A stretch of DNA of 64,000 nt from an uncultured Planctomycetia bacterium. Lineage in GTDB: Bacteria > Planctomycetota > Planctomycetia > Pirellulales > Thermoguttaceae. The DNA is taken from contig CAWFIG010000022.1 in assembly GCA_963815695.1 (NCBI GenBank), positions 96,648 to 160,647 on the forward strand. Reading direction: 5' to 3'. Position numbers and translations under genes: made by a program. Of the stretch, positions 5,297 to 52,085 are shown piece after piece (positions within the stretch are counted from its first letter, which is position 1; each line of letters starts with the position of its first letter). The notes below the pieces were generated by a model. It saw only the letters and a list, made by a program, of their open reading frames with translations. It was not told where the DNA came from and made no database searches.

Positions 5297-5367
5297 CAAA
5301 CGGCACTCTCGCCGAATCAGAATGCCGGGCAGGGCAGGGGAGGGTAGGGGGGCTTGGCAGGCGGCCG

Positions 5368-6834
5368 ATGGCAATATCTAATGGTAATTTGGTTATGCAA
5401 AGTTCAGGCGGGCCGCTCCCTGGTCCGCCCCGCGACGATCCCGCTCTTCACGTCGGAGACACGGCTATGGCGGCGTTGCGTGTGCACGGCATGGGTGCTC
5501 TCGTCGTACTGGCCTTTGCATCGGTCGCGTTGGGCGACGGCGTGTACATTCCCCAACGGGCAGTGCGAAAAGTGCCGGATATCCCCGCACAGCGTGCCGT
5601 GCTGTCCTGGAGAAACGGCCAGGAAACGTTGTTGATCTCCTCGGCGCTGGATTCCGCATCGCAAAAACTCGGCTGGATCATTCCGCTGCCCGCCGTTCCG
5701 AAATCGATCGAAAAACAATTGCCCGGTGGACTCAAGACACTTGATTTCTGCATTCAGCCGAAGATCACGCACGATCTTTATCCGCTTGTCCTCTTCGCGG
5801 TTTACGCATTTTTTGTCATCAATCTCGCCCTGGCAACGCTCCTATTCAAGAAGAGGGACCGACTGGGATACCTTCTGATCGAACTTCTTCTTTTTGGAGT
5901 GGTGCCGTCGTTGATGCTCCCTGCATTGGGAGCATCGGCCCCGCGTGCGGCTAGGGTACAAATTCTGAAGACCGCCACGGTCGGTTCTTACCATATTAGC
6001 GTCCTGCGGCCAAAGAAACTCGGTGATCTGAACGCCTGGCTTGCCAAGAACGACTTCTCGCTTCTGCCGGCGACAGCCGGCCCGGCGGTCGCCGATTACA
6101 TCGCCGACGGCTGGGTGTTTGTCGCGATCAAACTGGTCCGCGCCGAGTCGGGAGCCAACGCCCCGCATCCGATCCAGATGACGTTTGCCAGCAAGGAGCC
6201 GGTGTATCCGCTGAAACTCACCGGACTGGCCGGCGGCAGCACCGCATTCGAGATTTTTGTGATCGCGAACGACCGTGCGGCTTGCAGGCAACTCGAAGTG
6301 GAGTTTTGCGACCGATTTCGGCAGGACATCGCTCATGCGAGCTATGCCTATGACTCAGAGTCAGATCCCCATTACGAGACGAAGACGCTTTTCGTGGGCG
6401 ATACGAGCAATCAGATCATAGGCCATCCGGCAATCTGTTCCCTGATGTGGGACAAGTGCATTCTTTCGAAGTTCGCGGGAACGATCGACGCCGATCGCAT
6501 GACCGCCGACCTGCAATTCGATCGCAAGCCGTTCGAGGCGTGTCGGCAACATCTCTATACTCGGCGAGGCGCACGCCACGTTGCTTTGATTCTGTTCACG
6601 TGCCTGACGGGCTGCTGGCTTGCCGCCTCGATGGTGGCGTGCCGGGCCAAGGTAGTGCAGCCGTGGGGACTGACGCGGTATCTCGGCCGGGTGCTGCTGC
6701 CCGTCGTCGCGCTGTATGCGGTCGGCGCTGCGATCCTGTTCGCCTGCTTGCCCAAACTCGCCACCTCCGAGGTGGTGACGGGGTCTCCCCTGGTGCTGCG
6801 GCGTTTTTGCAGAGGGTCTGCGCGGCAACATTGA
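5368..6834 (+). CDS. DUF2330-like membrane protein
   Basis: Intact 488-aa ORF; an internal start near 5464 is possible. Segment GVYIPQRAVRKVPDIPAQRAVLSWRNGQETLLISSAL...GWIIPLPAVP matches my recollection of DUF2330. Several TM helices at the C-terminus. Confidence 0.55.
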   Translation: MAISNGNLVMQSSGGPLPGPPRDDPALHVGDTAMAALRVHGMGALVVLAFASVALGDGVYIPQRAVRKVPDIPAQRAVLSWRNGQETLLISSALDSASQKLGWIIPLPAVPKSIEKQLPGGLKTLDFCIQPKITHDLYPLVLFAVYAFFVINLALATLLFKKRDRLGYLLIELLLFGVVPSLMLPALGASAPRAARVQILKTATVGSYHISVLRPKKLGDLNAWLAKNDFSLLPATAGPAVADYIADGWVFVAIKLVRAESGANAPHPIQMTFASKEPVYPLKLTGLAGGSTAFEIFVIANDRAACRQLEVEFCDRFRQDIAHASYAYDSESDPHYETKTLFVGDTSNQIIGHPAICSLMWDKCILSKFAGTIDADRMTADLQFDRKPFEACRQHLYTRRGARHVALILFTCLTGCWLAASMVACRAKVVQPWGLTRYLGRVLLPVVALYAVGAAILFACLPKLATSEVVTGSPLVLRRFCRGSARQH

Positions 6835-7144
6835 GGAAGCACTGCAAGATCAGCCGCAGATTCTTCAACGGACGCAGAAAGAAATTGCCGAATCGATCCT
6901 CGAACACTGCCGCAAACGGATGAAAGAATACACACGCACGAACCCAATGACCGGGGGCGACATCCTGCTGGAAGACAGCCCCGGCAACTTCACGGTTGAG
7001 AAGTCGGACAAGAGCGTCATCATTCGCGTCTACGACTACGTCGGCCGACCGATGCTGATCGACGAACAGTCGTTTCGCGATGCCGATAAGCAGGGCAGGG
7101 GAGGGCAGGGCGGCAGCCATCAGGAGACGAGCGATCTGCAGTAA
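6833..7144 (+). CDS. hypothetical protein, or frameshifted C-terminal extension of the DUF2330-like protein
   Basis: The frame of ORF 6920..7144 is open upstream to about 6780 (GVFAEGLRGNIEEALQDQPQILQRTQKEIAESILEHCRKRMKEY...). A T5 run at 6804-6808 is a plausible indel site. The tail contains the G-tract motif (KQGRGGQGG). Confidence 0.25.
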   Translation, partial: EEALQDQPQILQRTQKEIAESILEHCRKRMKEYTRTNPMTGGDILLEDSPGNFTVEKSDKSVIIRVYDYVGRPMLIDEQSFRDADKQGRGGQGGSHQETSDLQ

Positions 7145-7228
7145 CGATCACAGGCGACTGCACATGAATTTGGACTTCGCTCCGTCCGCCACGTGGACGC
7201 GGCGGCTAAACGTCGATGCCAGACTCGC

Positions 7229-8340
7229 TCATCGCTCATCCCTTTCCGCCGCCAGCCGGCTCGCCACGCGCAGGGCCTCGATCATGCTGCCGGTCTCGGC
7301 CTGACGCCGCCAGGCGATGTCGAAGGCCGTGCCGTGGGCGACGCTGGTGCGGATGATCGGCAGGCCCAGCGTGACGTTCACCGCCCGGTGCATTCCCAGC
7401 AGCTTCAGGGCGATGTGGCCCTGGTCGTGATACATGGCCACCACGGCGTCGAATCGGCCGTCGCGGGCGCGGACCATCAGCGTGTCGGTGGGCAGCGGCC
7501 CTTCGAGCCGCAGCCCCTCGGCCAGCCCGCGCTCGACGGCCGGGCGAATGATCCGCACGCTCCTCGTCGCCGAACAGCCCGCCCTCGCCGCCGTGCGGAT
7601 TCAGCGAGCAGACGCCGATCCGCGGGCGGAGCGAAAAGGGGTCGGTTCCAATTTGTCGGAACGGCGCCGAGGGTGCTTGGCAGGAATTGGACCTGGCCCT
7701 TTTCGGCCGCATCAGCCGCGACATGAATCGGTCGGCCAGCCGGGCCTTGGCCAGGATGGCCTCCTCGGTCAATTCGTCGAACACGTTCCGCAGCGCCGTG
7801 TGCAGCGTCACGTGGACCACGGCCAGCCCGGCCGGCGAGGCAGGTCCTCGTTCGGGCCCAGGTAGAGCATCATCGCGTAATCGTCGACGCCGCAGACGTG
7901 GGCCAACAGTTCGGTGTGGCCGGGATAATCGTGGCCGGCCCGGTGCAGGGCCTCCTTTTGCAGCGGCGCGGTGGTGATGGCGTCGACCCGGCCGTCCAGC
8001 GCCAGGCGGATGGCCGTCACCACGGCGTCGTAGGCCGCCTGGCCCGCCCGGGCGTCGAGCGTGCCGGGCGGCCACGGCCAGCACGTCGTCCGAGCCGCAG
8101 GGGATGCAGGGGATCACGTCGGCGCGACGGCTGGGCCTGCTCGGGCGACTCGATCTCGACCACCTCGACGCCGGTCTGCCAAAGACGGACGGCCCGGCGG
8201 AGGATCTCCGGATGGCCCACCACCAGCGGCCGGCAGCATTCGTGGACGACGGTCTCGGTCCATGCCCCGACGATGATCTCCGGCCCGACGCCGGCCGGGT
8301 CGCCCATCGTCACGGCAATCAGCGGTTTAGCGTTCTGCAC
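7229..8340 (-). CDS. pdxA: 4-hydroxythreonine-4-phosphate dehydrogenase, several apparent frameshifts
   Basis: Stitched from ORFs 8017..8406 (KPLIAVTMGDPAGVGPEII), 7808..8023 (AITTAPLQKEALHRAGHDYPGHTELLA) and 7229..7558 (AMYHDQGHIALKLLG...NVTLGLPIIRTSVAHGTAFDIA). GTG at 8340 taken as start. Confidence 0.85.
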
Positions 8341-8483
8341 TGTCAGTTCTGCTTCGTCTGAGTGGCTCCAAAGCGCGATTGTACGCCACGTTCTGCGTCG
8401 AGCCAAAGGGGAGTTGCCGAAAACCGCGATGCCTGAGTTGTTTCCGTTACTGCCAATCCCTGATCCCTGATCGCTTTACTTCC

Positions 8484-8925
8484 ATGCGAGCCTGCGTTCA
8501 ACGAGTCCGCCGCGCGTCGGTCACGGTGGCCGGCGAGGTCTGCGGCAGCATCGGCACCGGGCATGTTGGTGCTGCTGGGCGTGGCGCCCGACGACACCGA
8601 AGCCGACGCCCGCTGGCTGGCCCAAAAGATCGCCGGCCTGCGGATTTTCGAGGACAGTCAGGGAAAAATGAACCTTTCGCTGGCCGACGTGGGCGGGGCG
8701 ATGCTGGTGGTCAGCCAGTTCACGCTGCTGGGCGATTGCCGCCGCGGCCGCCGCCCCGACTTCACCGCCGCCGCCCCGCCCGAATTGGCCGAGCGGCTCT
8801 ACCAGGTCTTCATCGCCGCCGTCGCCGAGCAGGGCGTGCCCGTGGCCACCGGCCGGTTCCGCCAGCACATGGAGGTCGAGCTGGTCAACGACGGCCCGGT
8901 GACGCTGATCGTCGAGAGCGCCTAA
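8484..8925 (+). CDS. dtd: D-aminoacyl-tRNA deacylase, one apparent frameshift near 8555
   Basis: [24 protein letters not shown] (frame of ORF 8379..9176) joins ORF 8563..8925 ([31 protein letters not shown]...SQFTLLGD). The junction lies at a GGG run. Confidence 0.85.
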
Positions 8926-9042
8926 CGCAGCCGCTTGGCGGCTTCGCGAGCTGCCGGAACTCGTCAGCGGTGCCAGATATGGTCGATCAGCCGCGTGGCC
9001 GTCTGTTGGACCGAGCGGCCGATGGCCGGCAGTCGATGGCGG

Positions 9043-9676
9043 CTAGGCCAGTTGCGGCTCGAAGAGGATCACGGCGGTCAGCAGGGCCAGCTTCGCGTAG
9101 CCGAGACGTTCGACCAGTGCCGTGGCCGAAGAGTTTCAGCGCCGTGCCGAACGAACTCTTCAAGTGCAGCCCGTGACTCCACTCGACGCTCCAGATTTCG
9201 TCCAGCACCAGGTGCGAAAGATAGCCGAGCGTTACCGCGCCGGCCTTGTACAGCCGCAAATCCAGTCGTCGCCCGAGGCCAGCAGGAAGGCGATTTCGCC
9301 GAAGACCACGCGCCGCGGGCACGCTATGGAACATGCCGCGATGAACCGTGAACCATCGCAACAGCGCCGCCACGCCAAAGCGGATCGACAGATAGACGGC
9401 TGCGCCGGCCAGGAGGATCATCTCGTGCGACATGCCCCAGTGCTGAAACCGGTGCAGCAGCATCATCGGCACCACGGCCGAGGCAAAGGCCATGCTCTCG
9501 CGCTGCGGCGTGCTCGAGTCGCTGTCGATGTCGGGCAACATCCCCGAAACGCTGCACAACCCGGCCGCCAACGCGCAGGTGGGCCAGGGCACGCCGTACG
9601 TGCAAGTGCACGCCGCTCCGCCGTAGCCGACGCCGAGAAGACTGCTGGCGGTGATGTGAATTTTGAAGCCGGGCAT
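9043..9676 (-). CDS. YdjM/DUF457-like membrane-bound metal-dependent hydrolase, apparent frameshifts
   Basis: ORF 8987..9751 from MPGFKIHITASSLLG, LPDIDSDSSTP, HRGMFHS. The tail is restored in another frame (LKLFGHGLVERLGYAKLALLTAVILFEPQLA-stop at 9043). Confidence 0.6.
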
Positions 9677-9918: not shown

Positions 9919-10605
9919 ATGCAAGTCTACGATATCGTGATGTTGGTCGTCTTGGTGGGCGCCACGCTGTTCGGCGTTTGGAAGGGGATGGCTTGGCAAG
10001 TGGCCTCGTTGGCGTCGGTGGTCGTTAGCGCCGCGGTGGCGGTTCACAGCAGCGCCGACGATCGCCCCCTACTTCCCCGGCCAGGAGCCGTGGAACCGCT
10101 TTCTGGCGATGGCGGTGCTCTACGTGGTCACGGCCGGGGCAATTTGGATCCTGTTCCGTCTGGTGTCGAACCTTATCGACCGCGTGAAGCTCAAGGAGTT
10201 CGACCGGCAACTCGGCGCGACGTTCGGACTGGCCAAGGGGGTTCTGTACTGCGTCGTGATCACGTTCTTCGCGGTCACGTTGTCGGAGCCTTCCCGGCAG
10301 GTGGTGCTGGCGTCGCGTTCCGGCGATCTGATCGCCCGAGGCATTCGCAACGCCAATCCGATCTTGCCCGAGGACGTCCGCAAGTATCTCGGCAAGTACA
10401 TCGACCAGTTGGACAAGGGGCTGCACACGCCGCCGCAGAACCCTGCCCCCAAAGCCCCGCTCCACAAACCGAGGAGTCGAGCCCAAATCCGCTACCCCCC
10501 CAAAAGGACACTGCAAAGGAGACGCCGAAGCCTACGGGCGCTGCCGGCCCTGCCGAGGGCAAGGGGGCGGTGGAAAAGCTCAAAAAACTGCTCGGCGAAA
10601 AATAG
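9919..10605 (+). CDS. CvpA-family membrane protein, apparent frameshifts
   Basis: MQVYDIVMLVVLVGATLFGVWKGMAWQVASLASVV (frame of 9724..10605) plus ORF 10109..10675 (AVLYVVTAGAIWILFRLVSNLIDRVKLKEFDRQLGATFGLAKGVLYCVVITFF). Low-complexity Pro/Lys tail ends at 10605. Confidence 0.65.
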   Translation: MQVYDIVMLVVLVGATLFGVWKGMAWQVASLASVVVSAAVAVHSSADDRPLLPRPGAVEPLSGDGGALRGHGRGNLDPVPSGVEPYRPREAQGVRPATRRDVRTGQGGSVLRRDHVLRGHVVGAFPAGGAGVAFRRSDRPRHSQRQSDLARGRPQVSRQVHRPVGQGAAHAAAEPCPQSPAPQTEESSPNPLPPQKDTAKETPKPTGAAGPAEGKGAVEKLKKLLGEK

Positions 10606-10907
10606 CCGCTCGCCGATCGGCGTTCGATTTGGCGTTGTCGTCGCGGGCTTTGTCCGGTGTGGCGGGGGCGGGTGAGGGGGGCGGAGTTTCGCTGCGGCAT
10701 CGGGCCCGCTCGCCGGGCATCCAAATCGGCCGACTGAGGGCGATTATGGGCGAGGCAGTGGAAACGATGGTTTGAGAGACTGGCTGTTTTCCCGGCGAAT
10801 TTGCGGCTCCCGACCGAACATAAGAAACATTATCGGACGTTGCAGGCCCGCTCCTTGTGCCGCCTCTTGGGCGAAAAAAGTGCGGCCGCCGTAGCGTCGC
10901 CATTCAA

Positions 10908-11885: not shown

Positions 11886-12971
11886 GGCTGGACTGTCGCT
11901 CGATTGGCGTTCTGATTGTCACTCACTTTGTGATCTCCTGCTCGCGATCGGGTGCAATCAGTGGGGAAACGGTGGAAGAAGACCTGAAGGTTGTTCATTC
12001 GGCCGACCGCCTTCGAGAAGACTCCCATGCGGCGGAACTTCCGATAGCGCTCGTCCAAGAGCAGATCGGTCGGCTTGCCGAGCAACTCGCGGAGCGCGCC
12101 GCGAAGATAGAGCTTCAAGCGGCTGGCCATCAAGTGGTGGTTGCGATGGGCGCCGCCGAGCGGCTCGTGAGATGATCGTGTCGATCAAGCCCAACCGGCT
12201 GAGGTCTTTCGAGGTCATTTTCAGGGCCTCGGCCGCCTGTTCCTTGAAGGTGTGGCTCTTCCAAAGGATGCCGGCGCAGCCTTCGGGACTGATGACCGAG
12301 TAATAGGCGTGTTCGAGCATGGCCACGCGGTCGCCGACGCCGATCCCCAGCGCGCCGCCCGAGCCGCCTTCGCCGATCACCACGCAGATGACGGGCGTGG
12401 GCAGCCGCGACATCTCGAACATCGACTCGGCGATGACCTGGGCCTGGCCGCGCTCTTCGGCGCCGATGCCCGGATAGGCCCCGCCGGTGTCGATCAGGCA
12501 GATGACCGGCATGTGGAACTTGGCGGCCAGCCGCATCTTGGCCATCGCCTTGCGGTAGCCCTCGGGATGGGCATAGCCGTAGTTGCAGAGGTTGCGTTCC
12601 TTGAGATTCTTTCCCTTTTTGATGCCCGACGACCAGCACCCGGTAGGCGTCGAGTTTTGCCCAGCCCGTGCGGATCGCCCGGTCGTCGCCGAACGTCTTG
12701 TCGCCGTGCAACTCGACGAACTCCTCGAACACCAGTTCGAGGTAGTCGGTCGTCATCGGCCGGTCGGGGTGCCGGGCGACCTCGACCGTCTCCCACGGCT
12801 TCAGATTGCGCGTAGATCCGCTTCGTTCACCTCGACCAGTTCGCGGCGCAGCAGGCGGATTTCGTTGCGAACCTCCGGCGTCGAGTCGCCCTTGGCCTCG
12901 AGCTTCTCCAGCCGGGCTTCGAGCTCGTAGATCGGACGTTCAAACGATAGTCGGTGTTCGCTTCCTGCCAT
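11846..12971 (-). CDS. accA: acetyl-CoA carboxylase carboxyltransferase alpha subunit, apparent frameshifts; 3' end uncertain
   Basis: Stitched from 12801..13016 ([25 protein letters not shown] from 12971), 12130..12756 ([34 protein letters not shown]), 11958..12545 ([34 protein letters not shown]...[10 protein letters not shown]) and 11846..12133. One junction is an extra A in the run gggaaag near 12605. Confidence 0.85.
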
Positions 12972-13051: not shown

Positions 13052-13957
13052 CTACGCCACCTTATGCCTTGTCGGTTCCGAAGCGGGGTTTTTGCACGAA
13101 TTGACGGGTGGGGTGATCTTAAAAACCCGCATCATACGAAATTCCCTCAGAAAATCATCCACCGATTTGGGGCGTGCGTCACGTTTTTTGGAGAGCGACC
13201 GCCGAATCAACTGGGAAAACTCCGGCGTGACGTTGTAGTTGAGCGCCTCCAACGAGGGGGGCGTCGACTCGCAGATGTTTGTTCAGCAGGTCGTTCGTGC
13301 TTGTCCCCGTAAATGGGGGTTTGCCGGAAAGTATCTCGTGGATGCGTGCAGGCAAAGCTGTACAGGTCGGCCCGACCGTCCAGGGCCTGGCCGCGGATCT
13401 GCTCGGGCGAAATGTAGCTCTTGGTCCCCTGAATCAGCCGTGCCTTGGGGGTGAACCAGTGCGTCAGCCCGTGCCGGCAACGCTTGGCCAGGGCGAAATC
13501 GATCAACTTCACGTCGCCGTCGTCGGTCACCAGGAAGTTGTCGGGCTTGATATCGCGGTGAATCCAGCCCATTCCGTGGAGATAGCACAGGGCCAGGCAG
13601 CCTTGGTCGATGATCTTCGGCATCAACGGGGCGATCTTCTCCGCCCCTTGCAGGAACCGCTGCTTCATGTTCGGCGAGGAGAACCACTCCATCGCGAAGT
13701 ACGGCTGGCGAGGCGTCCCAAGGCGAGGGATAGATCTCGATGATGTTCGGATGCTGCAGTCCTTGCCCGACGGTGTATTCCCATCGCAGATAGTGGACTT
13801 GCTCGCGGTCCTTCGCGTCCTTTTCCAGCAGCGTCTTCACGCCCACGATCCGCTGGTTGGCGTCGTCATAAGCCTGCCAGATCAGGCTGGCGTGGCCGGT
13901 ATGAACGACGTTCAGCAGGCGATAGGGCCCGAGATAGCCGGGAACAGGTTTCGCCAC
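13052..13957 (-). CDS. serine/threonine protein kinase, apparent frameshifts
   Basis: Stitched from 13283..13957 (GPYRLLNVVHTGHASLIWQAYD...VGVKTL), 13207..13692 (LHGMGWIHRDIKPDNFLVTDDGDVKLIDFALAK...GTKSYISPEQ) and 13052..13252. Confidence 0.8.
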
Positions 13958-14089: not shown

Positions 14090-14424
14090 CTGAGCCAACG
14101 AAGCACGGTGGCCTTCTGGTATCCGGCATCTTCCCGGCAAGACCGATTGGCCCCCCCCTGCCCTGCCCCATTGATCGGCGTTAGCATCCTCGGAGTTGCC
14201 GGACCAGGGAGTGGCGAATCAATAACGGTCGCTCGTCGCTTCACTTCTCTGCGTCCTCCGCGCTTTCGCGTGAGTCCCGTTCAGTGACTTGGTTCACGCG
14301 AAGGCACGGAGGACACGGAGCGGGGAGACGATGACGATAGTTGATTTATCGGTCCCAAGCGGTCGTATGTCGAAATTCATAGGCGATCGAGATCGAGCGG
14401 CGTCGTCTTGCCCACCCTCTTCGC

Positions 14425-14692: not shown

Positions 14693-15950
14693 TCAGATTC
14701 CGAGCCTCTTGAACATGTCGTCGGCATTATTACAGTGCGTCAGGTTCTCGCCACGATCCGTTGCGCCGAATGTCCTTTGCGTCGTGGCGTTCGGATCGGC
14801 CAGCACTCTTTGATACAATTCTCGTAGTCTAGCGGTCATGTGTTCGTGGCGAAACACGTCGGTGAAGCGGCGGCGGCCTTCCTGGCCGAGGCGATCGCGC
14901 ATGGCGGGATCGGCGGCGAGCAATTTTAGCTTCTCGGCCAGCGCGTCGACGTCGCGGGGCGGAATCAGGAAACCGGTCTCGTCGGAAATGACCACCTCGC
15001 GGGCGCCGTCGACGTCGTAGCTGACCGCCGGCTTGCCGGAAATCAACGCCTGGGGCAGAACCCGGGCGAGCCCTTCGCGCAGACTGGCGTGAACCACGAT
15101 GTCCATCGCGGCGATCAGTTCGGGGATTCGCTCGGGCGGGACCAGGCCGGTGAACTGGAAATAGTCGGTCAGCCCGGCCGCGGCGATCTGCTGCCGCAAG
15201 CCGGTCGCGAAAGATGCCGTCGCCGACGAAGAGGAAACGGACGTTCGGCGCCGCGTCGATCACGCCGCGGGCCGCGCGAATCACGTCGTCGTGGCCCTTG
15301 AGCTTGAACAGCCGGGCGATCTTGCCGATCACGACGTGCTCGGGCCGATAGCCCAACTCGCGGCGCACGCGGTCGCGATGCTCGCCCGACTGGAGGAACG
15401 GCTCGACCTCCATGCCGCTGTAGATCGTGGTGAACTTTTCGCGCGGGGCCACGCCGGCCGAGACCATCAGATCGGTCATGGCGTCGGCCACGCTGACGAT
15501 GGCGTGGCATCGCTTCGCGGCCCAGCGTTCGCAGGCTTGAAAGAACAGCCGCGCCCCCCTGCCCTGGTACGGATGGAACGGCGCGCCGTGGACCGTGTGG
15601 ATCACGGCCGGCACGCCCAGCGACCAGGCGGCGGCGCGGCCGAGCATTCCGCCCTTGGCGCTGTGCGTATGAACCACGTCGGGCCGAAATCGCCGCAGCG
15701 ACCTTTTGAGTTGCCGATAGCTGACGGCGTCGCGCCACGGATGGATCGGCCGGCGCAGCGCGGGGATGATTTCCAGCGGCACCCCCCCTGCCCTGGCCCG
15801 ATCCAACAGACTCCCTTCCGGCCCCAGCGGCGGCCCGGTGATCAGCAGCACGTCGTCGCCGTGCTGGCGGAGCAGGTCTTCGCAGCAGAGCACGGTGTTT
15901 TCCTGTGCTCCGCCGAGGATCAGTCGCGTGATGACGTGGGCGATACGCAT
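14693..15950 (-). CDS. GT4-family glycosyltransferase, one apparent frameshift near 15200
   Basis: ORF 14829..15950 (MRIAHVITRLILGGAQENTV...HTHSAKGG...) joined to ORF 14693..15199 (FTGLVPPERIPELIAAMDIVVHASLREGLARVLPQALISGKPAVSYDVDGAREVV, the E-x7-E region). Confidence 0.85.
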
Positions 15951-15990
15951 GGACTGGCATCAACTCTGCCGAGCCGAGGACTGTTCGGGA

Positions 15991-34673: not shown

Positions 34674-34707
34674 CGGTTAATCCCTAATCCCTAATCCCTA
34701 ATCCCTC

Positions 34708-34708: not shown

Positions 34709-36120
<1,412 letters not shown>

Positions 36121-37643: not shown

Positions 37644-37986
37644 AGAAGTGATTAATCGCCACAGAGGCACGGAGGCCACGGGTGAAGGACGAAGAACGGT
37701 CAAGAAGAACAGCCGGGGGCCAACGGCCCGCGGAGGAACTGCCCAATCGTCTCCGGGCCGTGAACGGACGCTAGTTCCTCGCGCTTCGTCGTCTGCCGAT
37801 CCGTCGCCCCCTCCCCTGCCCTGCCCTCCCCGTTCTTGGCAGCTGACGTCCTTCTGCTTCGCGAAGCTCGGACAAACAACAGACCGACCGAGGTGAGCCA
37901 GATTGCCAGAGCGATGCAGTTGCGCCCGGTTCAAATGTCGCTCCTTTTTCGATAGTGATGGAGAGTAGCTGTCGCCCTCGAGTATG

Positions 37987-40621: not shown

Positions 40622-41851
40622 CTATGGTACGAGTCGGGCGTCGAGCCAGTCGGCGTGGTCGAGGACGTCGGCGCGGTCGGCGTAATCGACTAGTAGTTCT
40701 AGCTTCTTCGCGCCGCGAACATCGACGGAAACCGGCAGCGGGGCGTCGCCGCCGCGGACGATTGGACTGGTGAAACGTTCCTGGCCATCGACCAGGACGC
40801 GGAAGATCACGCTGCCGCGGCCTGGCGGTCGAGTCGTCGATGCCGACCTTGGCCTCGAAACGATGGAAACGACTTGGAAATTTCGGAGACTTGGGGATCC
40901 GCAGCCTCTGACCCCTGACCCCTGACCCCTGACCCCTCAGCTGCCCTTACCCCCTGCCCCTCTCCCACCGGCGGAAGAGGGGAGATTGTGTAGACCAGCC
41001 GGGCGGCGCTGTGAACGCCGAGGCCTTTCAGATAAAGCTGGCCGCTCGCAGCGGAGCATGCCGCCGGTGACGTTGCGGTCGCGGCGATACGGCCACGGCA
41101 GGCGAGGAACGGCGTTTGGCGATACTCGGCCGGCTTGAGGTCGGAGAGATAGACGGCGCGGCCGCCAGCGGTTGAAGGAAGACGAGCGGCGAGCGCTTGG
41201 CCCGTAAGCGTTTGGCCGGCGGCCGTGATTTTCAGCGAATCGCCTTCGAGCAACAATTCCGTGGCCAACAGCCGGCTGCCGTCGCTGAAGCCTGCCCAGA
41301 CTCGCAGCGAGTCGGGCTTGACGGCCAGTTTTCGCCGCAAGGCGGGGTTGAAGAGGATGGCCGTGATGCGGTCGGTCTTGACTTCGGACCGGCGCCGGCG
41401 TCGGTCTTCAACGTGACGGCGTCGTCGGCGATGCCCTCGAAGAGGCCGGCAAGCTCGTCGCCGTTGTCCAACAGCAGGCGGTCGGAGTCTCCGGCGGCGT
41501 TGGAGAGGCGATCGAGCAATAAGTCGTGCTGCTGGCGGTCGGACAGGCGCGAAGGACGATGCCGGCCAGCACGTCGAGCGGCAGCTTCAGCGTTCCGAAC
41601 AGATCGGAATCGGCGGTGAGCCGGTCCTTGTCGGCGGCGACCACCTCGGCCGTCAAGCAGGCTGCCGTCGGCCAAGACGAGCCCCCCTGCCCTGCCCTGC
41701 TCCGGGCATTGTCCCCAGCGGACCAGATCGGCCGCCGGCATGGTGCGTCGCTCGTTGCCGACGGCGAAGGTGAGTTGCCAGTTGGGCGTCGACGGCGACC
41801 AGCTTCGCCGCGGAACGGCTCGCCGTCGACGGGAACGGCCACGGGGCGCAT
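40622..41851 (-). CDS. NPCBM/NEW2-domain protein, frameshifted and carrying a repeat insertion
   Basis: C-terminal ORF 40622..40810 (IFRVLVDGQERFTSPIVRGGDAPLPVSVDVRGAKKLELLVDYADRADVLDHADWLDARLV). Upstream fragments 40807..41340 (YLKGLGVHSAARLVYT), 41232..41906 and 41408..42025. Start MRPVAVPVDGEPF at 41851. Confidence 0.6.
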
Positions 41852-41993: not shown

Positions 41994-42035
41994 GCCCTCT
42001 CCCCTCTCCCCTCTCCCCTCTCCACTACCCTACCG
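41994..42035. repeat. C-rich heptamer array (GCCCTCT, CCCCTCT x3, CCACTAC, CCTACCG)
   Basis: Counted directly. Overlaps the stop codon (42030-42032) of the prenyltransferase-repeat gene. Confidence 0.9.
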
Positions 42036-43164: not shown

Positions 43165-46100
43165 CTACGGCTTTGGCTTTTCTTCCGACAGGCGTCGGAA
43201 ATATTCTTCGATCTGCAATTCGTACTTCGGCGAGAACTCCTCGCCGGGCGATTGCAGCATCTGCTGGCGAGCGTGCTGCGGCAACAAGTACCAGAGCCGC
43301 TGCATCGCGTCCCGCGTTTCGGCGGCGGCTGCGTCGGACTTGCTTTGCGGCGTTCTTGCCGGGCGGACGCGGCGAACCGGGGGCGGCCGGTTTGTTGTTC
43401 GGGTTCTTCCCCGGCTTGCTGTTGGGCTTCGGCGGCTGCCGCGGAGGTTGCTTCCGCGTGCTCGGCTGCGATTGGCACTTGCCCGGTTTGCATTGGCCGG
43501 CCTTTTTGCGGGCCTGCTCGATCAGGCGGTCCAGATCATCGACGATCTGCCGCTGAAGCTGCTGCGTGGCCGCGCCGAGTCGGCCTTGGCGATCCGCTGC
43601 TTCGCCTCGCGTCATTTCGCGGGCGATTTGCAGCATCGGGTTGTCGCTCTCCTTCTCGGCGGCCGCACCTAGCTCGCGTTTCAACTGGTCCTCGTCTACC
43701 ATCCGTGACTGTACGTCGGCTTGACTTCCGGCGGCGGCTTCGGCGTTCCGCTCGGTCGGCGGCGGCCGATCGCAGCACGATGTCGGCCAGATGGCCTTGC
43801 TGTCGGCTCAAGGCAGCGTACTCGCGCAGTTGCTCGGGCGTGGGCTTGTCGGCGGCCGCCTGCTGCAAGGTCTCGATGCGGGAGTTGATCTCCTGCTGCA
43901 TCAGCTTCAGGAGCTTCAATTGGGCGATCGCCGGAAGGCGGTCGCCCGGCGGGCCTTGCTTCTTGCCGCCGTTGTTGCCGCCGCCGGCGTTGTCCTCCTG
44001 GTCGGCTTTCGGCTCGGCGGGCGGTTCGGGTTTCAGGGCCTCGACCAACAGATCGAGCCGGCGGAGCGCGCGGCGCTGCGGTTCTTGCGTGGGCGGGCCG
44101 GTCTCGCGCCGATCGAGCGACTCGGCGGCCTCGGCCCATGTCGTCGGCGGCCCCGGTCAGCGCGAGCTCGAACGCCCCGGCGGCGCTGAGCTGCTGGCCG
44201 AGCTGCGCGGCATCGGTCTGAAGCGAGCGTTGCAGCCGGGCCAACTCGAGGACGGAGAGCGCCTGCGATCGCGTGAGTTGGCCTTGCGACTCTTCGAGGC
44301 CGCGAAGCCGCTGGGCTTCGTCCAAGGCGTTTTCCTGCTGGCGGCGGAGATGCTTGACGTTGTCTTGCCAGCCGGGCAAGTTGCTCCTGGGCCAACTCGG
44401 CGGCGGCTTGGCGAAGCTGCTCGGCAAGCTGGCGGCGGGCTTCGGCCAGCGACGCGGCGGGCTTCGGCGGCCTTCGGGCGGCGTCCGGCCGCAGTCCCCC
44501 TGCCCTGCCCTGCTGGTTCGGCCTCGTCCATTTGCTCGGCGGCCAGCGCGGCGGCCTCGGCGGCCTGCTCGGCCTGCAATCGCGCAAGCTGCCGCGAGAG
44601 CCGTTCGGTCTCGTCGCGCAATTGCCGCTGTTGATCGGGCGAGCCGCTGCAACTCGCGCCGGCGGGCTTCCTCTGTTCTGTCCTTTGCGGCGGCGTCGAT
44701 CTGCTTCCGCAACTGGCTCTTGCCGCTGTTCGAGGGCGGAAAGATCGGCCTCGGCCGCGCGAAGTTTCTTGACCAAGCGGACCAGCTCGTTCTGGCGCGA
44801 TTGGCCAGGACGTCGAGCACTTCCTGCAAGTCCTGGGCGATCTGTTTTTGCGCGGCGGCGGCCTGGCCGATCTGGTTCTGCCGGATTGCATCGCGCCGGC
44901 ATCGCGCATTTCGGCCGCTGATGGCCAGCCGGCGGGCCTCGTCCAGCGGCGTCGGCGACGGTGTCGGCGGCCAGCGGGTCGGTCTTGCGCAGTTCGACGA
45001 CCGCCTGGTCGGCTTCCTGCAGCATGCGATCGAGCAGCGCGGGCAAGCTCAAACTGGCGGCCGGCGGCCGCGTTCAGATCGGCGGCGTCTTGCGGCGGCA
45101 AGGTCGCGGAGTTCGCGCGTCAACGTGCGGCGGCCGACCTCCGACGTGCGATGGCGCCGCGTCCTCCTGGTCGCGGAGCAATTGGGCCGATCTCGCGATG
45201 CAGGCGGCGATAGCTGTCCCATCGGGCGAGCTGATCGATCTGACTGTTCCAGTCGCGGCGATGATCGCGTCTTGATGTTCGGCGGCGGTCGGCCAGCGAC
45301 TTTCGCGACGCTGGCGACGTCCGCGGCGGCGCTCCTCCTGCCCTTCGCGATCGACTTGGGCCGTCTTGACGGCGGCGGTCAACTCGCGGCCCACCGGCGG
45401 CAGCAATTCGCGGTCGAGCCGATCGAGTTCTGCCAGTAGCGAGTTCATCCGCTGCCGGGCGTCGGCGTTGTCGATGCCGTTGTTCTCCAGATCGGCCAGC
45501 AGCGCCAGAACGTGCGTGGGAATGCCTTCGCTGCGGCTGGTGAGCAACTCGGCCGACCTCGCGCTGGGCGTGTTCGGCGGCTTGCAGGCGGTCGACGTCG
45601 GACTGCTCGAATCGCCGCAGATCGCCCAGGCGGATTCGCGACGACTCGACCTGATCGCGGCAGCCGCGCTGCATTTTCGACGCCCGCTCCAACTCGGCCA
45701 CGATCGAGCTTCTCGCGGTCGGCGAGCGCGATCGCTGCAACTCGTCGGGCGTGACGACGATCAGACGCCGCGGCTCGCTCTTCGCCGTTTGCGGCAGGTA
45801 GTCGCTGGCCGTGGCATAAAAGGTCACTTGCGCGCCCGGCTGCAAATTCAACGGGGCGAGGTTCCAGCGATAATCGACCACGCGGCTATCGCCCGCGGGA
45901 GTTCGGTTCCGGCTGCGGCGGCGGCTGTGGCGGCCCGGAGAACAGCGGCAGCGAGCTCTCGGGCTCCGATTCGCCGCGGCGGAACACCAGCGCGACGTCG
46001 CGGAGAGCGAGATCGTCCTTGGCCGACACGCGAATCGGCGCGACGGCCTGCGGAGTGACAAACAGATTGGCCGCGGGGCTGCTCGATCTGCACGCTGGGC

Positions 46101-47306
46101 GGAGCGTCGGCAATGGCGCGGATTTCCCAGCGGTCGTCGTCGCCGCCGTGCAGCCCTTCGCGGTCGGTCAATGCGAACCAGTAGGCGCCGGATTTGTCGA
46201 CGACGGCGGCGACGGTAGAACGTGCACAGCCGTCGTCGCTGAGTTGGGCGGGTATCTTGCGGCCGTCTTCGAGGCAGAGATCGGCCGAGGCGAGCGGCGC
46301 TGGTGGCCTTGCCGATGAATTGCACGCGCGTGCCGACCAGTGCGCGGATGTGCCGCTCGGACGACGCGGCGGGCCAGCCGGTGTATGCCGGCGGAATCAG
46401 GCGGATCGAGAGCGACTCGACGGCGGGCGGCTCGACCACTTCCACGTCGGTCCAGGGGATGGAGGTCTGGTCGTCGCCGCCTTCGACGCGATAGGAGAAC
46501 GGCCGCAAGACGTTCTCGCGCCGGGCGACCATCGCGCCGTCGGCGAAACGCATCCGTTCGGTTTCCTCGACGACGCCGCCGTCGGGCGTCGGCAGCCGAT
46601 AGTGGATGCGAACCTCCGGCGGCAGCCGGGCGCCGGAGGCGTCGACCACTTCGATCTCGAAAATCTGTCCGCGGGCGATGCGCTCGACCGGCTGGCGGAT
46701 CGTCAGGTGCGTCGTCCGCGGCCAAGCCGTATTGCCGAACGGATTGATCAGCCGAGCGACGGCGATTTGCGCGGCCGACGAGATTGGGCAAAACCAGCAA
46801 GACAATGGCCGCCGCGTAGGCCGATTGCCGCCACCGTGCCGGCGCGAACGACCGGGCGGCGATCGAGCGCCGCCGAGAAATCGAGCCGCATCGGCTCTCG
46901 GCCGATGCCTGGGCAATGACCGTCGCGGCGCAGGGCGACCGAGCCGGCCGCGGGATCGTCTTCGGCGGTGTGCAGGAACTCGACGGCGGTGACGAGGCGG
47001 TCGCCCAGCAACGGGAAACTGCCGCTGGACGCGCCTGGCCAGATCGACATTGGCCAGCCGCATCCGCAGCGACCGCCAGAACGTGGCGGTAGAAGCGTCC
47101 AGCCGGCAACACGCCGAGCACCGCCAGCGACGCGATGATCCGCAGGCCGCGGTCCTGGAAGCGAAACACGATAGTCGAGCAAGCCCGAGCACGACCGCCA
47201 GCGCCGCAACAGAGCCGTCGGCGACGATGCACAGTCCATGGAGCACGGCCATCGGCCGCACGCGGCGCCGCAACGCGACGAGTTTTTCTTCCAGCGGATG
47301 GAGCAT
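43165..47306 (-). CDS. very large membrane-anchored coiled-coil protein (DUF4175-like), many apparent frameshifts
   Basis: Start MLHPLEEKLVALRRRVRPMAVLHGLCIVADGSVAALAVVLGL (47306). Beta-rich middle in ORF 45120..47438 (LINPFGNTAWPRTTHLTIRQPVERIARGQIFEIEVV...VVDYRWNLAPLNLQPGAQVTFYATASDY). Ala/Gln/Arg/Glu-rich coiled coil at 43700-45500. Restored end ELQIEEYFRRLSEEKPKP-stop (43165). The family call is from memory of Bat-type neighbourhoods. Confidence 0.55.
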
Positions 47307-47319
47307 GATACGCACAATT

Positions 47320-49722
47320 CTATACCATTCCCCGGCGTTTTCTCGTAATATCCATTCGGCGATCAGCAGCAGCAGGAACAGCGCCAGCACCGGCCAGCGG
47401 TTCCAGAGCGGACGCGGCGGCAGCGATTCGATGGGCACCTGGCGGCCGGGCGGCAGGTCGTCGCAGCAAGCGGTCGGCCGTGTCGAACGTGTAGAATCGG
47501 CCGCCGGAGATTTCGGCGGCCGCGCGCATGGCGGCGGCGTCCATGCGCACTTGGGCGAATTCGCCGGGCGGCGGAACCACCGTGAAATCGACCGCCGGCG
47601 ACTGGCCCTGGCAGCGTCGGGCGCGGCGATCCAGGCGTGATAGCTGCCCGTGGCGGGCCGATCGAGCAGGCCCTCGAAGACGCCGCGGGCCGGCGGCCGC
47701 GCGGTGCAGCGACATCCGCCGCGTCTTTCGCCCGGACTGCTCGACCACGACCGTCACGCCGTCGTCTTCGGCCGGGGCCAGCCGCTCGTCGGCGAACCGC
47801 ACCCGCAGCCGCACCGACTCGCCCTGGGCGATATTCGCGGCGGTCGGTCGTGAGAGTGGCCGCGCGGCCGGCGTCGGCCAGCTTCGAGCGGCAGAGGTAG
47901 CGGATCGTCTGAATCCAGTAGCGGGCGAAATAGACGTCGCCGACGCGATAACGCCATCGCCAGGTCTCGTCGGTGGCGTGGAACAGCACCTTGCCGGCGC
48001 CGACGTACTGGAAGCAGGATCACCGGCAAGCGGCGGCCGTCGGGGCCGGTTCGCGTGGGGTGCTCGGCCAGCACGCGCACGCCCGGCTTCAACTCGGGAA
48101 TCTCCAGCAGCCAGTACAGCGGCGGCAGATTCTTCCAGATCCGCTCGCGTCTCCTCCGGCGTGTCGCCCAGTTGCATGGAGGGGCTGGCCAGGCCGAGAT
48201 CGGTCGGCTGCACGACGAAACCTTCGGTGAGCGTGTCCGGTCGGATAGCCGGACGCGATCGACCGAGAACGGCAGCAGCCGGGCCAGCGGCGTGTCGCGG
48301 AAGGCCGCCGGCATGTACGACGGGCCGGCGATCACGACCAACGAGCCCCCCTTGGCCGGCTGATCGACGAAATCGGCCAGGTTCTGCATCGCCGCCGAGT
48401 CCAGCAGAGCCGGATTCACGTCGCCGAGGATCACGACGTCGTAGGCGAAAAGGTCTTCGCGCCGCAACGGGAAGGCCCGCAACGACGAGGCGTCCTGCTC
48501 GGCGTTCTCCGGATCGGCGTCTTGCAGCACGGTGTCGAGCGAGATCGTCTCATCGCGGCGGAGCATGTTCCGCAGGTAGCGGAACTCGAAACTCGGATAA
48601 GCTTGAACCAGCAGCACGCGGATTTTCTCCTTGCGGACCTGGACAGTGCGCGTCTGCCGGTTGTTTTCGGTCAGCGACTCGCCGGCCAGCGGCTGGGCCT
48701 CGACGACGTACTCGAACTGGCCGACCTTGGTGGGCCGGTATTGCAGGCGGACCCGCAACGGCCGGTCGTCGGTCGGGGCGGTCACCTCGGTCTTCGCCAG
48801 GATGTTCTCCGGCGTGGTGGGCTTGTCCTTTTCGCGGAGTACGATCGAGACCTTTCGCCCCTCGAAACCCGCGGCCGTCAGCTTGCACTCGAAATTCACC
48901 ACGTCATCGACGAATACGACGTCATCGACCATCAGATCGGAGAGCTTCAGATCGCGGACGGGCCGATCGCTGCCGAGGCCGACGAAATAGAGCGGCACGC
49001 CACGCCGCTGTGCGTGCTCGGCCGCGTCGGCCAGCGTTGGGCCGTCGGTGTTGATGCCGTCGCTGAGCACGACAACGGCGGCGGGGGCGGCGCCGCGCAA
49101 GTCGTCGAGCGCCGCACGCACACCGGCGCCCAGCCGGGTAGTCTTCCCCTTGGGGGCCAACGATCGCAGCTCCGCGACGATGCCCGGCACGTCCTGGCGC
49201 GGGCTGGCGCGAACCCGTGACAAAATAGACCCGCAACTTGTGACCGGCGGCGATTCCGCGCAAGAGGCTGCCGTCGCGCTCCGCCGTCAACGTTCGCAGA
49301 AGATTCCAGCGGCTCAAATCGGTCGCGCCGAGGCCGCTGCGGCGCAACCGCGCGGCCATCGCCTTGCGAGGCTTCTCGGCGTAGTGATCCACGATCGTCA
49401 TGCTCTGCGAGTCGTCGATCAGCACGGCCGCGTAGGGCAGTCCGGTGCGTTTCAACGAAAGCGTAACCTGGGCGATCATCAGCAGCAGCAGCCCGAGGAG
49501 CGCAAGCCGCAGGGTCGCCAGCATGATCCGATAGCGCCGCGTCGCACGGGTGCCTTCCCGCCAGTAGATCATCGCCACGAAGGCCACCGCCAGCGCCACC
49601 AGCAGCAGTGTCACCCAGGGCGGCCAGGGCCACGCCGAGTCGATCGACCAGACCGTACCCTCTCCGCTCCCGGTGCTGATACCGAGCAGGCGTTCGACCC
49701 AGGGTGGCATGACGTGGTTCAT
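47320..49722 (-). CDS. von Willebrand factor A-domain membrane protein, multiple apparent frameshifts
   Basis: ORF 48922..49722 ([24 protein letters not shown]...[11 protein letters not shown]). ORF 47754..49223 ([33 protein letters not shown]...[11 protein letters not shown]). ORFs 47363..47989 / 47320..48213. C-terminal [21 protein letters not shown]. Confidence 0.7.
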
Positions 49723-49723
49723 A

Positions 49724-49828
49724 GGTTAGTGGGCAGTCGGCAGTCGGCAGTGGGCAGTGGGCAGTCGGCGGTCGGCAGTCGGCAGTCGGCAGTCGGCAGT
49801 GGGTAGTGGATAGTGGGTAGTGGGTAGT
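49724..49828. repeat. heptamer tandem array, 15 units in perfect register (consensus SGGYAGT)
   Basis: ggttagt gggcagt cggcagt cggcagt gggcagt gggcagt cggcggt cggcagt x4 gggtagt ggatagt gggtagt gggtagt (105 nt). Starts 2 nt upstream of the VWA gene ATG (49720-49722). Confidence 0.95.
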
Positions 49829-49865
49829 GCGAAACCGCAAGCGGTTGTGAAGATATGACGAAGTT

Positions 49866-49935
49866 CATCTCTCATCCCTCATCCCTAATCTCTCATCCCT
49901 CATCCCTAATCTCTCATCCCTCATCCTCTCCCCCC
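49866..49935. repeat. C-rich heptamer array, ~10 units with a 21-nt super-period (CATCCCT CATCCCT AATCTCT)
   Basis: Counted directly. Overlaps the 3' end and stop region of the BatA-like gene. Confidence 0.95.
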
Positions 49936-52085
49936 AGTTTCCATCCCAGGAAGACCTCCGCCAGCGCAGGCCGAGCGCCGCGTAGAGGAGATCGACGTGC
50001 AGCCCTTGCTGGCCGTGGGCCGTCCCGACGCCGGCGCCTTTGATGTCTTGCCAGGAAGTCTGATAGACGAACGGAATGTCCGGCCACGTCTGGTTGCGCA
50101 GGTCGTCCGCATCGATTTGTGCAAGGTCGCTCTCCGTCGTATCGACGTTGACCGCGAACGTCTGGCGGCGGTTGGCCGGCGGGCCGAACTGCACCGTGTA
50201 GATGCCGCTTTGCAGCGTGTCGGCGTACGTCAGGGCGAAGCGGTCGCCGGCGGGCTGCAACTGCGCGGGCCGCTTGCGGCCGTCGGGCGATTGCACGCTC
50301 GCCGACGATATGCCGCCCGACGACGTCAAGGCGTCGAACGTATCGCCCACCAGGACGTTTCGCTGTTGGAGTTGCCCGGCCGCACACCAGGCGACGATCT
50401 CCTGCACCAGCGGGACGAAGCTCGGCCAGAGCGGCATGGCGGTCCACGACGGCTCGGCCGAGGTGCCCACCAGCACGACCCGGCCGCGATGGACCGATTG
50501 CTCGATCACCAGCGGATCGCCGTTGCCCAGCGCCAGCACGGTCGTCGCGTGCGACTTCTTCGACGGCGTCAGTTGGTAATGCTTGAAGACCGGCGTGGTC
50601 AGCAGGCTGGTTTGTCCGCGGCCGCGAAACGCCTCGAGAATCGGATGCCGATAGCCGAGCGGATCGAGCCGGAACTGCGGCTGATCGACGACGTTGCCGA
50701 TGCGGGCGGGCAGAATGTGCGGCCCCCCTGCCCTGCCCTCCCCGGCGACGCCCAATTCGCGATTGTAGCGGTCGGCCAACACCTGATCGCCGAGGAAGAA
50801 GACCACGCTGCCGCCGCCCTGCAAATAGGCATCCAGGGCGCGGGCCTCGCTGGCGGTGAACTGGGCGACGTTGCAAAGGAACAGGCAGTCGTAGCGTTGC
50901 CAGGTTGCGCTCCAACAGCGCGCTTCTCCGTGGCCACCTCGGCTTGCAGCGGCGACTGGTCCGACCTTTCGCCTTGCGGCGTCGAGCGCCACGGCGAGAT
51001 AATCGGCGGCGCCGCGGAACGAACCGCCCGAGGGCCGCCCGTCGATGCACAATGCGCGGATCGCTTGCCGCAGCGGTCAGGGCCAGATAGCGGTGATTGT
51101 CGATCTCCAGGGCGTCGCCGGGGGCGCGGGCCTCGATGGCGTGATCGCCGGGCGACATCGAAACGATACGAGAACTCCGACCGCGCCGCTGCCGTCCGGT
51201 GACAATTCCGCTTGGGTCTGCGCGATCCTTCGCCCATCGACGAACAGTTCCACAAGTTGGCGATTGCGCGGCGGCGGCGACCGAAATGCTGCAGACGAAC
51301 GTGCAGGGGCGTGTCGCGGCCGACGGTGACCAGCGAATCGGTCGTGCGGAGATCGGTAATCGCCAGATTCTCCGCCGACGGCTGGCCCAGGTCGATCACG
51401 AACAGGTCGGCCAGTTGGGTCAGTTGGCTGGTCTGTTCGAGGAACTGGGCGCGGGCCGTCTGCGAGAATTGCGGCGCCCATGTGACTGCGCTGCAAGTCG
51501 GTGAGGAAATAGACCTCATGGCGGTCGAGCCGGGGGTTCTCGCCGGCGACCTTCTCGATCAGTTGCCGAATCGCGGGAATCGCCGCCGGCAGATCGGCCA
51601 CGGTATGCGGAAGCTGCAAGTTGTCGATCTCCTCGCAAAATGGCAGCGGACTCCAACGCCGCCGTGCCGACGACCACTCGCGGCGTCGACGACATCAGCA
51701 CCAGCGTGAAGGCGTCGCCCTGCGGGCTGTCGCTGACGATCTGCCGGGCAAGCTCCTTGGCGTGGTCGAATCGCGTCTTGTCGGCCGGCTTGTAGGCCAT
51801 CGAGTAGGAGCCGTCGAAAACCAGCACGCGGTGGACGTGGCTGCCGGGCGTGAAGGCCATGCCCGCCCGCTCGATGTACGGCTCGGCCACCGCCAGCACC
51901 ACTAGCACGACCAGCAGCGTGCGAACGGCCAGCAGCAGCCATTGCTCGAACAGCAGCCGCCGCGTCTGCCGCCGCACGGCCGCCAGCAGATACTCCATCG
52001 CCGCGAACGACATTTCCCGGTACTTCCGCCGGCTCCACAGATGGATCAGGATCGGCGCAGCCGCCGCCCCCAGCCAGCCGAGCAT
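49914..52085 (-). CDS. BatA-type protein (N-terminal double-TM domain), multiple apparent frameshifts
   Basis: ORF 51516..52085: MLGWLGAAAAPILIHLWSRRKYREMSFAAMEYLL...LLLAVRTLLVVLVVLAVAEP...VLVFDGSYSM. Further fragments 51077..51619, 50599..51519 and 49865..51052. Restored end AEVFLGWKLGGEDEG-stop (49914). Confidence 0.7.

Follow-up and report, generated by a model that had tools for sequence, protein, structure and literature searches.

In Escherichia coli, the DNA translocase FtsK is oriented toward the chromosomal dif site by FtsK-orienting polar sequences (KOPS), a polar motif of consensus GGGNAGGG whose commonest form is GGGCAGGG (PMC3384302, PMC2680272). KOPS, which belong to the class of architecture-imparting sequences (AIMS), are described from E. 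coli, V. cholerae and P. aeruginosa. The dif site of E. coli (GGTGCGCATAA-TGTATA-TTATGTTAAAT) is 28 bp long; its two 11-bp arms flank a 6-bp centre and share an inner ATAA/TTAT palindrome. Planctomycetota live without FtsZ, divide mostly by budding and universally possess ftsK (PMC12673574), and a survey from 2011 predicted no dif for the only planctomycete genome that it tested (PMC3025954). Here we describe a stretch of 64,000 nucleotides (the window hereafter) from an uncultured Planctomycetia bacterium of the Thermoguttaceae (GenBank assembly GCA_963815695.1, contig CAWFIG010000022.1, positions 96,648 to 160,647), in which a G-rich 14-mer, GGGCAGGGCAGGGG, recurs around a dif-like site. Its core octamer is identical to the one known from KOPS, and the fourth position is likewise free. 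Our findings point toward KOPS-type FtsK-orienting motifs, often in tandem, that converge on a planctomycete dif site; we give this reading a probability of about 0.78, recognition by FtsK and XerCD being presumed from sequence resemblance.

The 14-mer is found in eight exact copies in the window (Table 1), all of them at the positions and on the strands listed in a preliminary description of this DNA. The close variants that it had placed at 7093-7110, 15554-15567 and 15782-15797 are present as well (at 7093-7110, 15557 and 15786). The observation is real and strongly non-random. Markov models of order 0 to 5 fitted to the window predict 0.001-0.005 copies, 100 dinucleotide-preserving shuffles of the window yielded none, and 21 matches with at most two mismatches are found against 1.1 expected, so that the claim of strong over-representation holds when it is set against these backgrounds. 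The 14-mer, (GGGCA)2GGGG, consists of a pair of overlapping octamers GGGCAGGG; this octamer matches the KOPS consensus and forms the core of every copy. The octamer itself is found 24 times, against 2.7-7.7 expected from Markov models of the same orders. The sequences flanking the eight exact copies are unrelated and share nothing except additional G-tracts, and the copies are thus not pieces of a longer repeat element. As a negative control, the viral contigs of IMG/VR were scanned for the 14-mer and gave only isolated single matches, scattered over the collection, which is chance level for a collection of such a very large size.

The orientation of the octamer divides the window into two parts. 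The four copies on the plus strand all lie at or before 7103, and the 20 copies on the minus strand all lie at or beyond 10441, in agreement with the flip of orientation previously placed between 7.1 and 14.1 kb. If these motifs are KOPS, a dif site is to be expected where their strand switches. A dif-like site indeed sits at this switch. It is the sole match to [AT]TAA-N6-TTAT[GC] in the window, where a rough estimate from base composition gives about 0.2 such sites by chance. Seventeen of its 28 positions are identical to E. coli dif, the core TTATGTT of the XerD arm included, and no other site in the window reaches 16 of 22 arm matches. Relative to this site, 23 octamers read 5'->3' toward it and one, at 10441, reads away.

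The site lies in a convergent intergenic gap, with cvpA (plus strand) on one side at about 400 bp and, on the other, a leucine-rich-repeat gene and accA (both on the minus strand), the end of accA being about 180 bp away. As in E. coli, the site comprises 28 bp with two 11-bp arms, the inner ATAA/TTAT palindrome and a 6-bp centre, and it lies at the point where polar motifs converge; in all but one of the loci analysed, a single site is present. It differs from E. coli dif in the outer bases of the arms (here ACGTCCG... and ...CGGT), and also in that the planctomycete site is located in an accA/cvpA gap conserved across the phylum, without a detectable switch in GC skew. Taken together, overlapping GGGNAGGG octamers and their convergence on a dif-like site favour what the preliminary description had offered as its secondary reading, a KOPS- or Chi-like architecture sequence. 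The dif-like site appears to be undescribed for Planctomycetota; our literature search, of incomplete coverage, returned no paper on KOPS or dif in Planctomycetes, so a prior description is possible.

Relatives of this bacterium, some of them named Pirellulales or Thermoguttaceae, were found through AccA homologues, and three syntenic loci (L121, L122 and L123) were taken for comparison. The 28-mer is identical in L121 and L122, and in L123 it differs by a single base, located in the central hexamer. In all three, GGGCAGGG converges on the dif-like site, with toward:away counts of 12:0, 10:1 and 11:0. The quality of the assemblies deserves attention in this regard. In the window, pdxA (7229-8117), accA (11958-12756), a Ser/Thr kinase gene (13207-13957) and a glycosyltransferase family 4 (GT4) gene (14693-15959) are each spread over two frames, and genes are similarly split in L121 (glycosyltransferase) and L122 (pdxA), both of which are 'contig_N' records. 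This points to uncorrected indel errors of long-read metagenome-assembled genomes (MAGs), rather than to pseudogenes, and the source of the window is probably an unpolished long-read MAG. L123, however, is a short-read SPAdes assembly with intact genes and shows the same pattern, so that the convergence is not an artefact of sequencing error.

The occurrence of the site beyond these relatives was examined in one genome per species, 185,579 species altogether, with the arm pattern GTCCGATAA-N6-TTATGTTCGG, which specifies 19 bases and for which we estimate only a handful of chance matches in the scan. At least 120 stretches were returned, with one match each. Among the matches listed, all but two titles are Planctomycetota, the lineages being Pirellulales, Pirellulaceae, Thermoguttaceae, Planctomycetaceae, Gemmataceae, Mariniblastus and Pirellula staleyi. 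A set of 122 non-redundant loci, 901 kb in total, was used in what follows. The identical 28-mer is present in 85 of them; in the others it differs chiefly in the central hexamer, while the arms are near-invariant, and the outer and central bases left unspecified in the arm pattern are conserved too. Conserved arms around a variable centre are, as far as sequence can tell, the pattern of conservation expected of a Xer site. The gene accA is found in 87 and cvpA in 83 of the 122 loci. Transcription of both runs toward the dif-like site, and the identity of AccA is as low as 54%. An accA-site-cvpA arrangement of this depth is unusual neighbourhood conservation for a terminus. A second dif-like site, at the threshold of 16 of 22 arm matches, occurs in only one locus (L172; CAYPIE010000002.1), in which the two sites are inverted and 75 bp apart. 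This contig is titled Alcaligenaceae and may be mis-binned; it is one of the two non-Planctomycetota titles among the matches listed, the other being 'uncultured bacterium'.

The polarity of the octamer emerges from these loci without prior choice of a word. In an unbiased screen of all 8-mers over 608 kb of flanks, GGGCAGGG ranked first (220 toward the site and 15 away, z = 13.4), and the ranks just below it were occupied by its own sub-words. Over the whole 122 loci, 331 copies point toward the site and 27 away, a skew of 0.92; the double copy, counted as a 13-mer, gives 74:0 and the 14-mer 43:0. A convergent majority is found in 23 of the 28 loci that have copies on both sides of the site. 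Of the 27 copies pointing away, 15 lie in other genomes on the cvpA side, 0.5-2 kb out. The few non-syntenic loci give 20:4. Metagenome contigs carrying the triple motif, of mixed taxa and with GC contents of 0.35-0.74, have 124 further sites in the orientation of that motif and 26 in the reverse orientation, a coherence that we regard as weak support.

These properties can be set against those of KOPS. Like KOPS, the planctomycete motif is over-represented and directs its G-rich strand toward dif on both arms, the E. coli motif having this same polarity along the leading strand (PMC3384302, PMC2680272). The skew of 0.92 near the dif-like site compares with 0.91 genome-wide and 1.0 in the dif region of E. 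coli (PMC3384302). Differences are apparent as well. The density is about one per 3.4-3.6 kb here as opposed to one per 12.6 kb in E. coli (PMC3384302), i.e. some three to four times higher, and overlapping tandem arrays, (GGGNA)2-6, are very frequent here.

Every single-base change of GGGCAGGG was counted toward and away from the dif-like sites. Only at position 4 is the skew retained with every base (0.81-0.92), the variants GGGAAGGG, GGGGAGGG and GGGTAGGG giving 35:8, 67:10 and 38:9, respectively. The change of G2 to A yields an abundant variant, GAGCAGGG, which keeps part of the skew (98 toward and 34 away), and all remaining substitutions lower it to 0.38-0.72. The resulting word, G(G/a)GNAGGG, also resembles the 'FRS' variant GNGNAGGG. 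G-rich control octamers show no skew (GGGCCGGG, 30:30; GGGACGGG, 12:13), and neither does GGGCTGGG, a one-base variant that keeps the G-tracts (33:26). The inferred word matches the published KOPS consensus (PMC3384302). It also recalls the SpoIIIE recognition sequence (SRS) of B. subtilis, GAGAAGGG, a polar octamer that guides an FtsK-family pump in asymmetric division (PMC3384302), insofar as GAGCAGGG is abundant and skewed here; the dominant word here is, however, GGGCAGGG and not GAGAAGGG.

The substitution profile bears on the alternative that fares best among those considered, namely that the motif is a Chi-like or other leading-strand signal, read by RecBCD/AddAB or by the replisome and not by FtsK. 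Chi sites have the same geometry, being G-rich, over-represented and co-oriented with replication, and polarity alone cannot separate Chi from KOPS. The sequence is nevertheless different from Chi (e.g. GCTGGTGG), and both the sequence and the substitutions that it tolerates fit the KOPS consensus with its free fourth position. The E. coli Chi word has only a mild skew in the loci analysed here (68:32), below the 74% expected from gene orientation alone. In E. coli itself, the skew of Chi is about 0.75, whereas that of the present motif is 0.92 and reaches 1.0 for its tandem copies. Moreover, known Chi sites are single words of 5-8 nucleotides and are not known to form tandem overlapping arrays. 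Such arrays do have a precedent as test substrates of FtsK (PMC3384302). We therefore consider a Chi-like signal unlikely.

The sites occur as (GGGNA)n with n ranging from 1 to 6, and the 14-mer is one size class of this series and not a discrete unit; the lineage favours overlapping copies of the octamer, which is why the 14-mer stood out. Multi-unit arrays account for nine of the 15 sites in the window. In a subset of 83 loci, the toward:away counts are 98:15 for n=1, 41:0 for n=2, 12:0 for n=3, 3:0 for n=4 and 3:0 for n=6, so that arrays of at least two units amount to 59:0. The window also contains other G-tract repeats, of heptamers and on the minus strand: (GGGATTA)3GGG at 34682-34705, (GGGGTCA)3GGGG at 40912-40936, (GGGGAGA)3GGG at 41995-42018 and GGGGTCAGGGGGAGGGTCAGGGG at 17219-17241. 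The G-rich strand of all of them points toward the dif-like site.

A G-quadruplex (G4) element had been the primary explanation of the preliminary description. In a fuller form of this alternative, such an element would have been selected for a structural or regulatory role on the sense strand or on the lagging-strand template, and polarity would follow from that role. It is true that (GGGNA)n with n of at least 3 meets the G3+N1-7 rule. By this sequence rule (four G3+ tracts, loops of 1-7 nucleotides), four-tract runs are found in the window at 5327-5344, 7093-7110, 17249-17269, 37813-37831 and 50731-50753, and 14151-14169 qualifies only when its long G-run is split. Five of the eight exact copies lie within such runs and the other three do not; the claimed extension into four-tract motifs stands for the former only, which leaves a G4 element tied to the sense strand of genes short as the main explanation. 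Among placeable in-gene copies that point toward the site, 35 are sense and 11 antisense, as a role on the sense strand could produce. Most sites, however, are single octamers with two G-tracts, and these are equally polar (98:15), while GGGCCGGG and GGGCTGGG, which keep the tracts, are unskewed; we thus regard G4 as a consequence and not as the purpose. Since arrays with n of at least 3 meet the rule automatically, the G4 potential can be taken as their by-product. Furthermore, antisense copies still face the dif-like site, and convergence on such a site is not something that a G4 role predicts. As the cause of the pattern, G4 formation is in our view very improbable.

The relation of the motif to genes was controlled for separately. 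Frameshifts made codon-based gene calling noisy, and a local coding-strand score, checked against the gene calls of L123, was used instead. By this score, coding runs in the direction of the site at 74% of coding positions. In co-oriented genes, 35 motif sites are sense and three antisense. In genes that point away, 11 of the 16 placeable sites are antisense and yet point to the site (strand calls are approximate and numbers modest), which indicates that gene strand does not explain the polarity. The proposed link of the motif to the gene strand is thus replaced by one to the direction of the dif-like site. Along the long arm of the window, 27% of the sequence, as tallied from the strand map, is coding on the plus strand, and this part bears two octamer sites on the minus strand and none on the plus strand. 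An antisense copy is also found in pdxA of a relative. The statement that every in-gene copy is sense holds for the placeable exact 14-mers, but not for the motif family, which has antisense octamers at 10441 and in the 25184/25203 pair (one called antisense, the other ambiguous). Secondarily, motif sites favour the sense strand or non-coding DNA. Sequence that is non-coding or ambiguous contains 34 of 41 multi-unit sites, compared with about 52% of random positions.

Conservation at the level of nucleotides rather than peptides, as first proposed, is borne out by the copies within genes. The truA copy contains A-G-Q-G-R-G (within RRAGQGRGG) and the BatA/VWA copy G-E-G-R-A-G, as had been described, in different frames and both in sense; the other reading frames given could, owing to the frameshifts, be checked only in part. 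Differing frames likewise rule out a repeat of the encoded peptide. In truA, the copy lies in a lineage-specific segment of about 44 residues that has no counterpart in E. coli TruA (1dj0, 2nqp), and for truA this confirms the suggestion that copies reside in insertions. The segment varies among relatives in length and sequence, and the motif is still present in their truA. In addition, even at an AccA identity of about 78%, other genomes have the motif in truA, in the GT4 gene and downstream of pdxA. In L123, the GT4 gene has two GGGCAGGG copies (7797 and 8026), and arrays lie just 3' of pdxA (14891/14896), at a comparable position. Placement of the motif in loops, at gene ends and in spacers agrees with selection acting on the DNA.

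Some of these observations could also be produced by a neutral (GGGCA)n pentanucleotide microsatellite shaped by slippage and a strand-asymmetric mutation bias. Array length varies from one to six units between genomes, as would result from slippage, and the truA copy is located in a length-variable loop of low complexity. Nevertheless, the base-composition skews near the site are very small (GC skew of about 0.01), and the motif returns in the same genes at the AccA divergence just given. The position-specific consensus and the 74:0 polarity of double copies indicate selection on sequence and on orientation, and a neutral origin seems to us scarcely credible. Many dispersed copies within and between genes would also be accounted for if the motif were the core of a short mobile or repeated element, whether a repetitive extragenic palindrome (REP), a miniature inverted-repeat transposable element (MITE) or a DNA-uptake sequence. 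This reading is dismissed here on the grounds of flanks that share only further G-tracts, the absence of an inverted-repeat partner, and a strict polarity toward one site that is foreign to such elements.

For KOPS-type motifs converging on a dif site, a mechanism can be outlined by analogy. The window would span the meeting point of two chromosome arms, with the motifs of the left arm on the plus strand and those of the right arm on the minus strand, both reading 5'->3' toward dif. At division, FtsK would load on the motifs in one orientation and pump DNA until it reaches dif, where it would activate Xer recombination, so that chromosome dimers would be resolved and the division or bud neck cleared of DNA. 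The (GGGNA)n arrays would offer several overlapping loading registers and hence stronger loading sites. We infer that the FtsK gamma domain would read the motif and that XerC/D would act on the 28-mer.

Several points weigh against this reading. GC skew is nearly flat over the dif-like site (pooled loci: left, +0.013; right, +0.001) and does not flip there within the window; neither GC skew nor AT skew is strong enough near the site to confirm a terminus. As a consequence, a replication terminus at the site is not independently confirmed. The flat skew may be why dif prediction in a planctomycete failed in the 2011 survey (PMC3025954). The polarity is documented up to 40 kb from the site in the window, which covers 53 kb of one arm, and within about 8 kb of it in other genomes. 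Most loci are orthologous, sharing accA-site-cvpA, and their counts are not independent events. The assembly is error-prone, and thus exact lengths of G-runs are uncertain. Searches of the window and of the fetched loci by tblastn with E. coli FtsK gamma, FtsK motor and XerD queries gave no planctomycete homologue, and no XerD-like gene is found within the flanks of the dif-like site. Finally, the FtsK of P. limnophila is said to lack 'PF17854 (FtsK gamma domain)', PF09397 being labelled 'SpoIIIE linker' in that work (PMC12283558). Pfam, however, returns PF09397 (FtsK_gamma) for the gamma domain of E. coli, and the statement is therefore ambiguous.

The features of the window are compiled in Table 1. 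Apart from these, the segment 44000-48000 has a GC content of about 70%, with a strong AT skew (-0.21 at 42-46 kb), and its long open frames, including one of 877 residues (45123-47753, minus strand), returned no Pfam match.

Table 1. Polar motifs, dif-like site and flanking genes in the window (positions in the window; direction is relative to the dif-like site; exact copies of the 14-mer are numbered, with their first position in brackets)
Feature	Position	Strand	Direction	Remarks
KOPS-like array GGGCAGGGCAGGGGAGGGTAGGGGGG, four GGGNA units	5327-5352	+	toward	exact copy 1 (5327); intergenic, between XylR-like gene and DUF2330 gene
KOPS-like array GGGCAGGGGAGGGCAGGG	7093-7110	+	toward	just downstream of pdxA
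cvpA (Colicin_V family)	9941-10675	+	transcribed toward	conserved right-hand neighbour across Planctomycetota
Single GGGCAGGG	10441-10448	-	away	sole window copy pointing away; antisense, in C-terminal tail of cvpA
dif-like site, 28 bp	10813-10840	-		ACGTCCGATAA (putative XerC arm), TGTTTC (6-bp centre), TTATGTTCGGT (putative XerD arm)
accA, frameshifted	11958-12756	-	transcribed toward	conserved left-hand neighbour across Planctomycetota
KOPS-like array GGGGCAGGGCAGGGGGGGG	14151-14169	-	toward	exact copy 2 (14155); between kinase and glycosyltransferase genes
Single GGGCAGGG	15557-15564	-	toward	sense in GT4 glycosyltransferase gene
One-mismatch variant GGCCAGGGCAGGGG	15785-15798	-	toward	GT4 gene
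KOPS-like array GGGGCAGGGCAGGGGAGGGGG	17249-17269	-		exact copy 3 (17255); sense in truA, in length-variable G/R-rich loop
Two single GGGCAGGG (25184 and 25203)	25184-25210	-	toward	inside plus-strand open reading frame with radical-SAM domain
KOPS-like array GGGGAGGGCAGGGCAGGGGAGGGGG, four units	37807-37831	-	toward	exact copy 4 (37813); no clear coding signal in region
Exact 14-mer	39314-39327	-	toward	exact copy 5 (39314); 3' end of, or just past, frameshifted DUF1559 gene
Single GGGCAGGG	40952-40959	-	toward	
GAGCAGGGCAGGGCAGGGG	41684-41702	-	toward	exact copy 6 (41684), after overlapping GAGCAGGG variant
Exact 14-mer	44497-44510	-	toward	exact copy 7 (44497); stretch of 70% GC, no Pfam match
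GGGGAGGGCAGGGCAGGGG	50725-50743	-	toward	exact copy 8 (50725); sense in frameshifted BatA/VWA gene

Two further observations concern the dif-like site in other contexts. In L121, some 2 kb (7386-9600) carrying two genes of unknown function lie between the site and cvpA and are absent from the window, L122 and L123; this insertion may be cargo inserted beside dif, and no second dif-like site flanks it. Secondly, eight predicted viral contigs of IMG/VR (L245-L252) carry the same dif-like core without accA or cvpA and with almost no GGGCAGGG. Six of the eight sites are within about 1.5 kb of one end of the fetched stretch, and no XerD-like gene is present in the stretches of these contigs. Viral contigs with the site but without accA or cvpA are what targeting of a Xer site by mobile elements would produce, and the eight contigs may represent elements integrating at the host dif by means of host Xer recombinases, in the manner of integrative mobile elements exploiting Xer (IMEX).

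FtsK is the one division gene of Planctomycetota that is both universally conserved and essential, and on this premise a more far-reaching proposal can be made. KOPS in unusually dense tandem arrays might drive a directional, SpoIIIE-like pumping of the chromosome into the bud, with the arrays as high-affinity loading sites for FtsK and the accA-dif-cvpA gap as fixed end point. The G4 potential of the arrays on the lagging-strand template could represent a further layer. We put this forward tentatively, as a possible but doubtful extension; if true, dif and KOPS would be mapped for the first time in the phylum, and this would give access to the way in which its cells segregate DNA.

Our results supply a candidate dif site and a polar motif where the 2011 survey could predict none (PMC3025954), and with them a map of the chromosome that is concrete and can be tested, in a phylum with a poorly understood division machinery. 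Because GC skew is near-flat in these genomes, the polarity of GGGNAGGG together with the 28-mer offers a practical means of locating the terminus, orienting contigs and detecting misassemblies in planctomycete MAGs. Mobile elements that exploit Xer recombination are predicted to occur in Planctomycetota. The polarity of GGGNAGGG extends to this phylum and, if FtsK reads the motif, the same FtsK code would operate beyond Proteobacteria.

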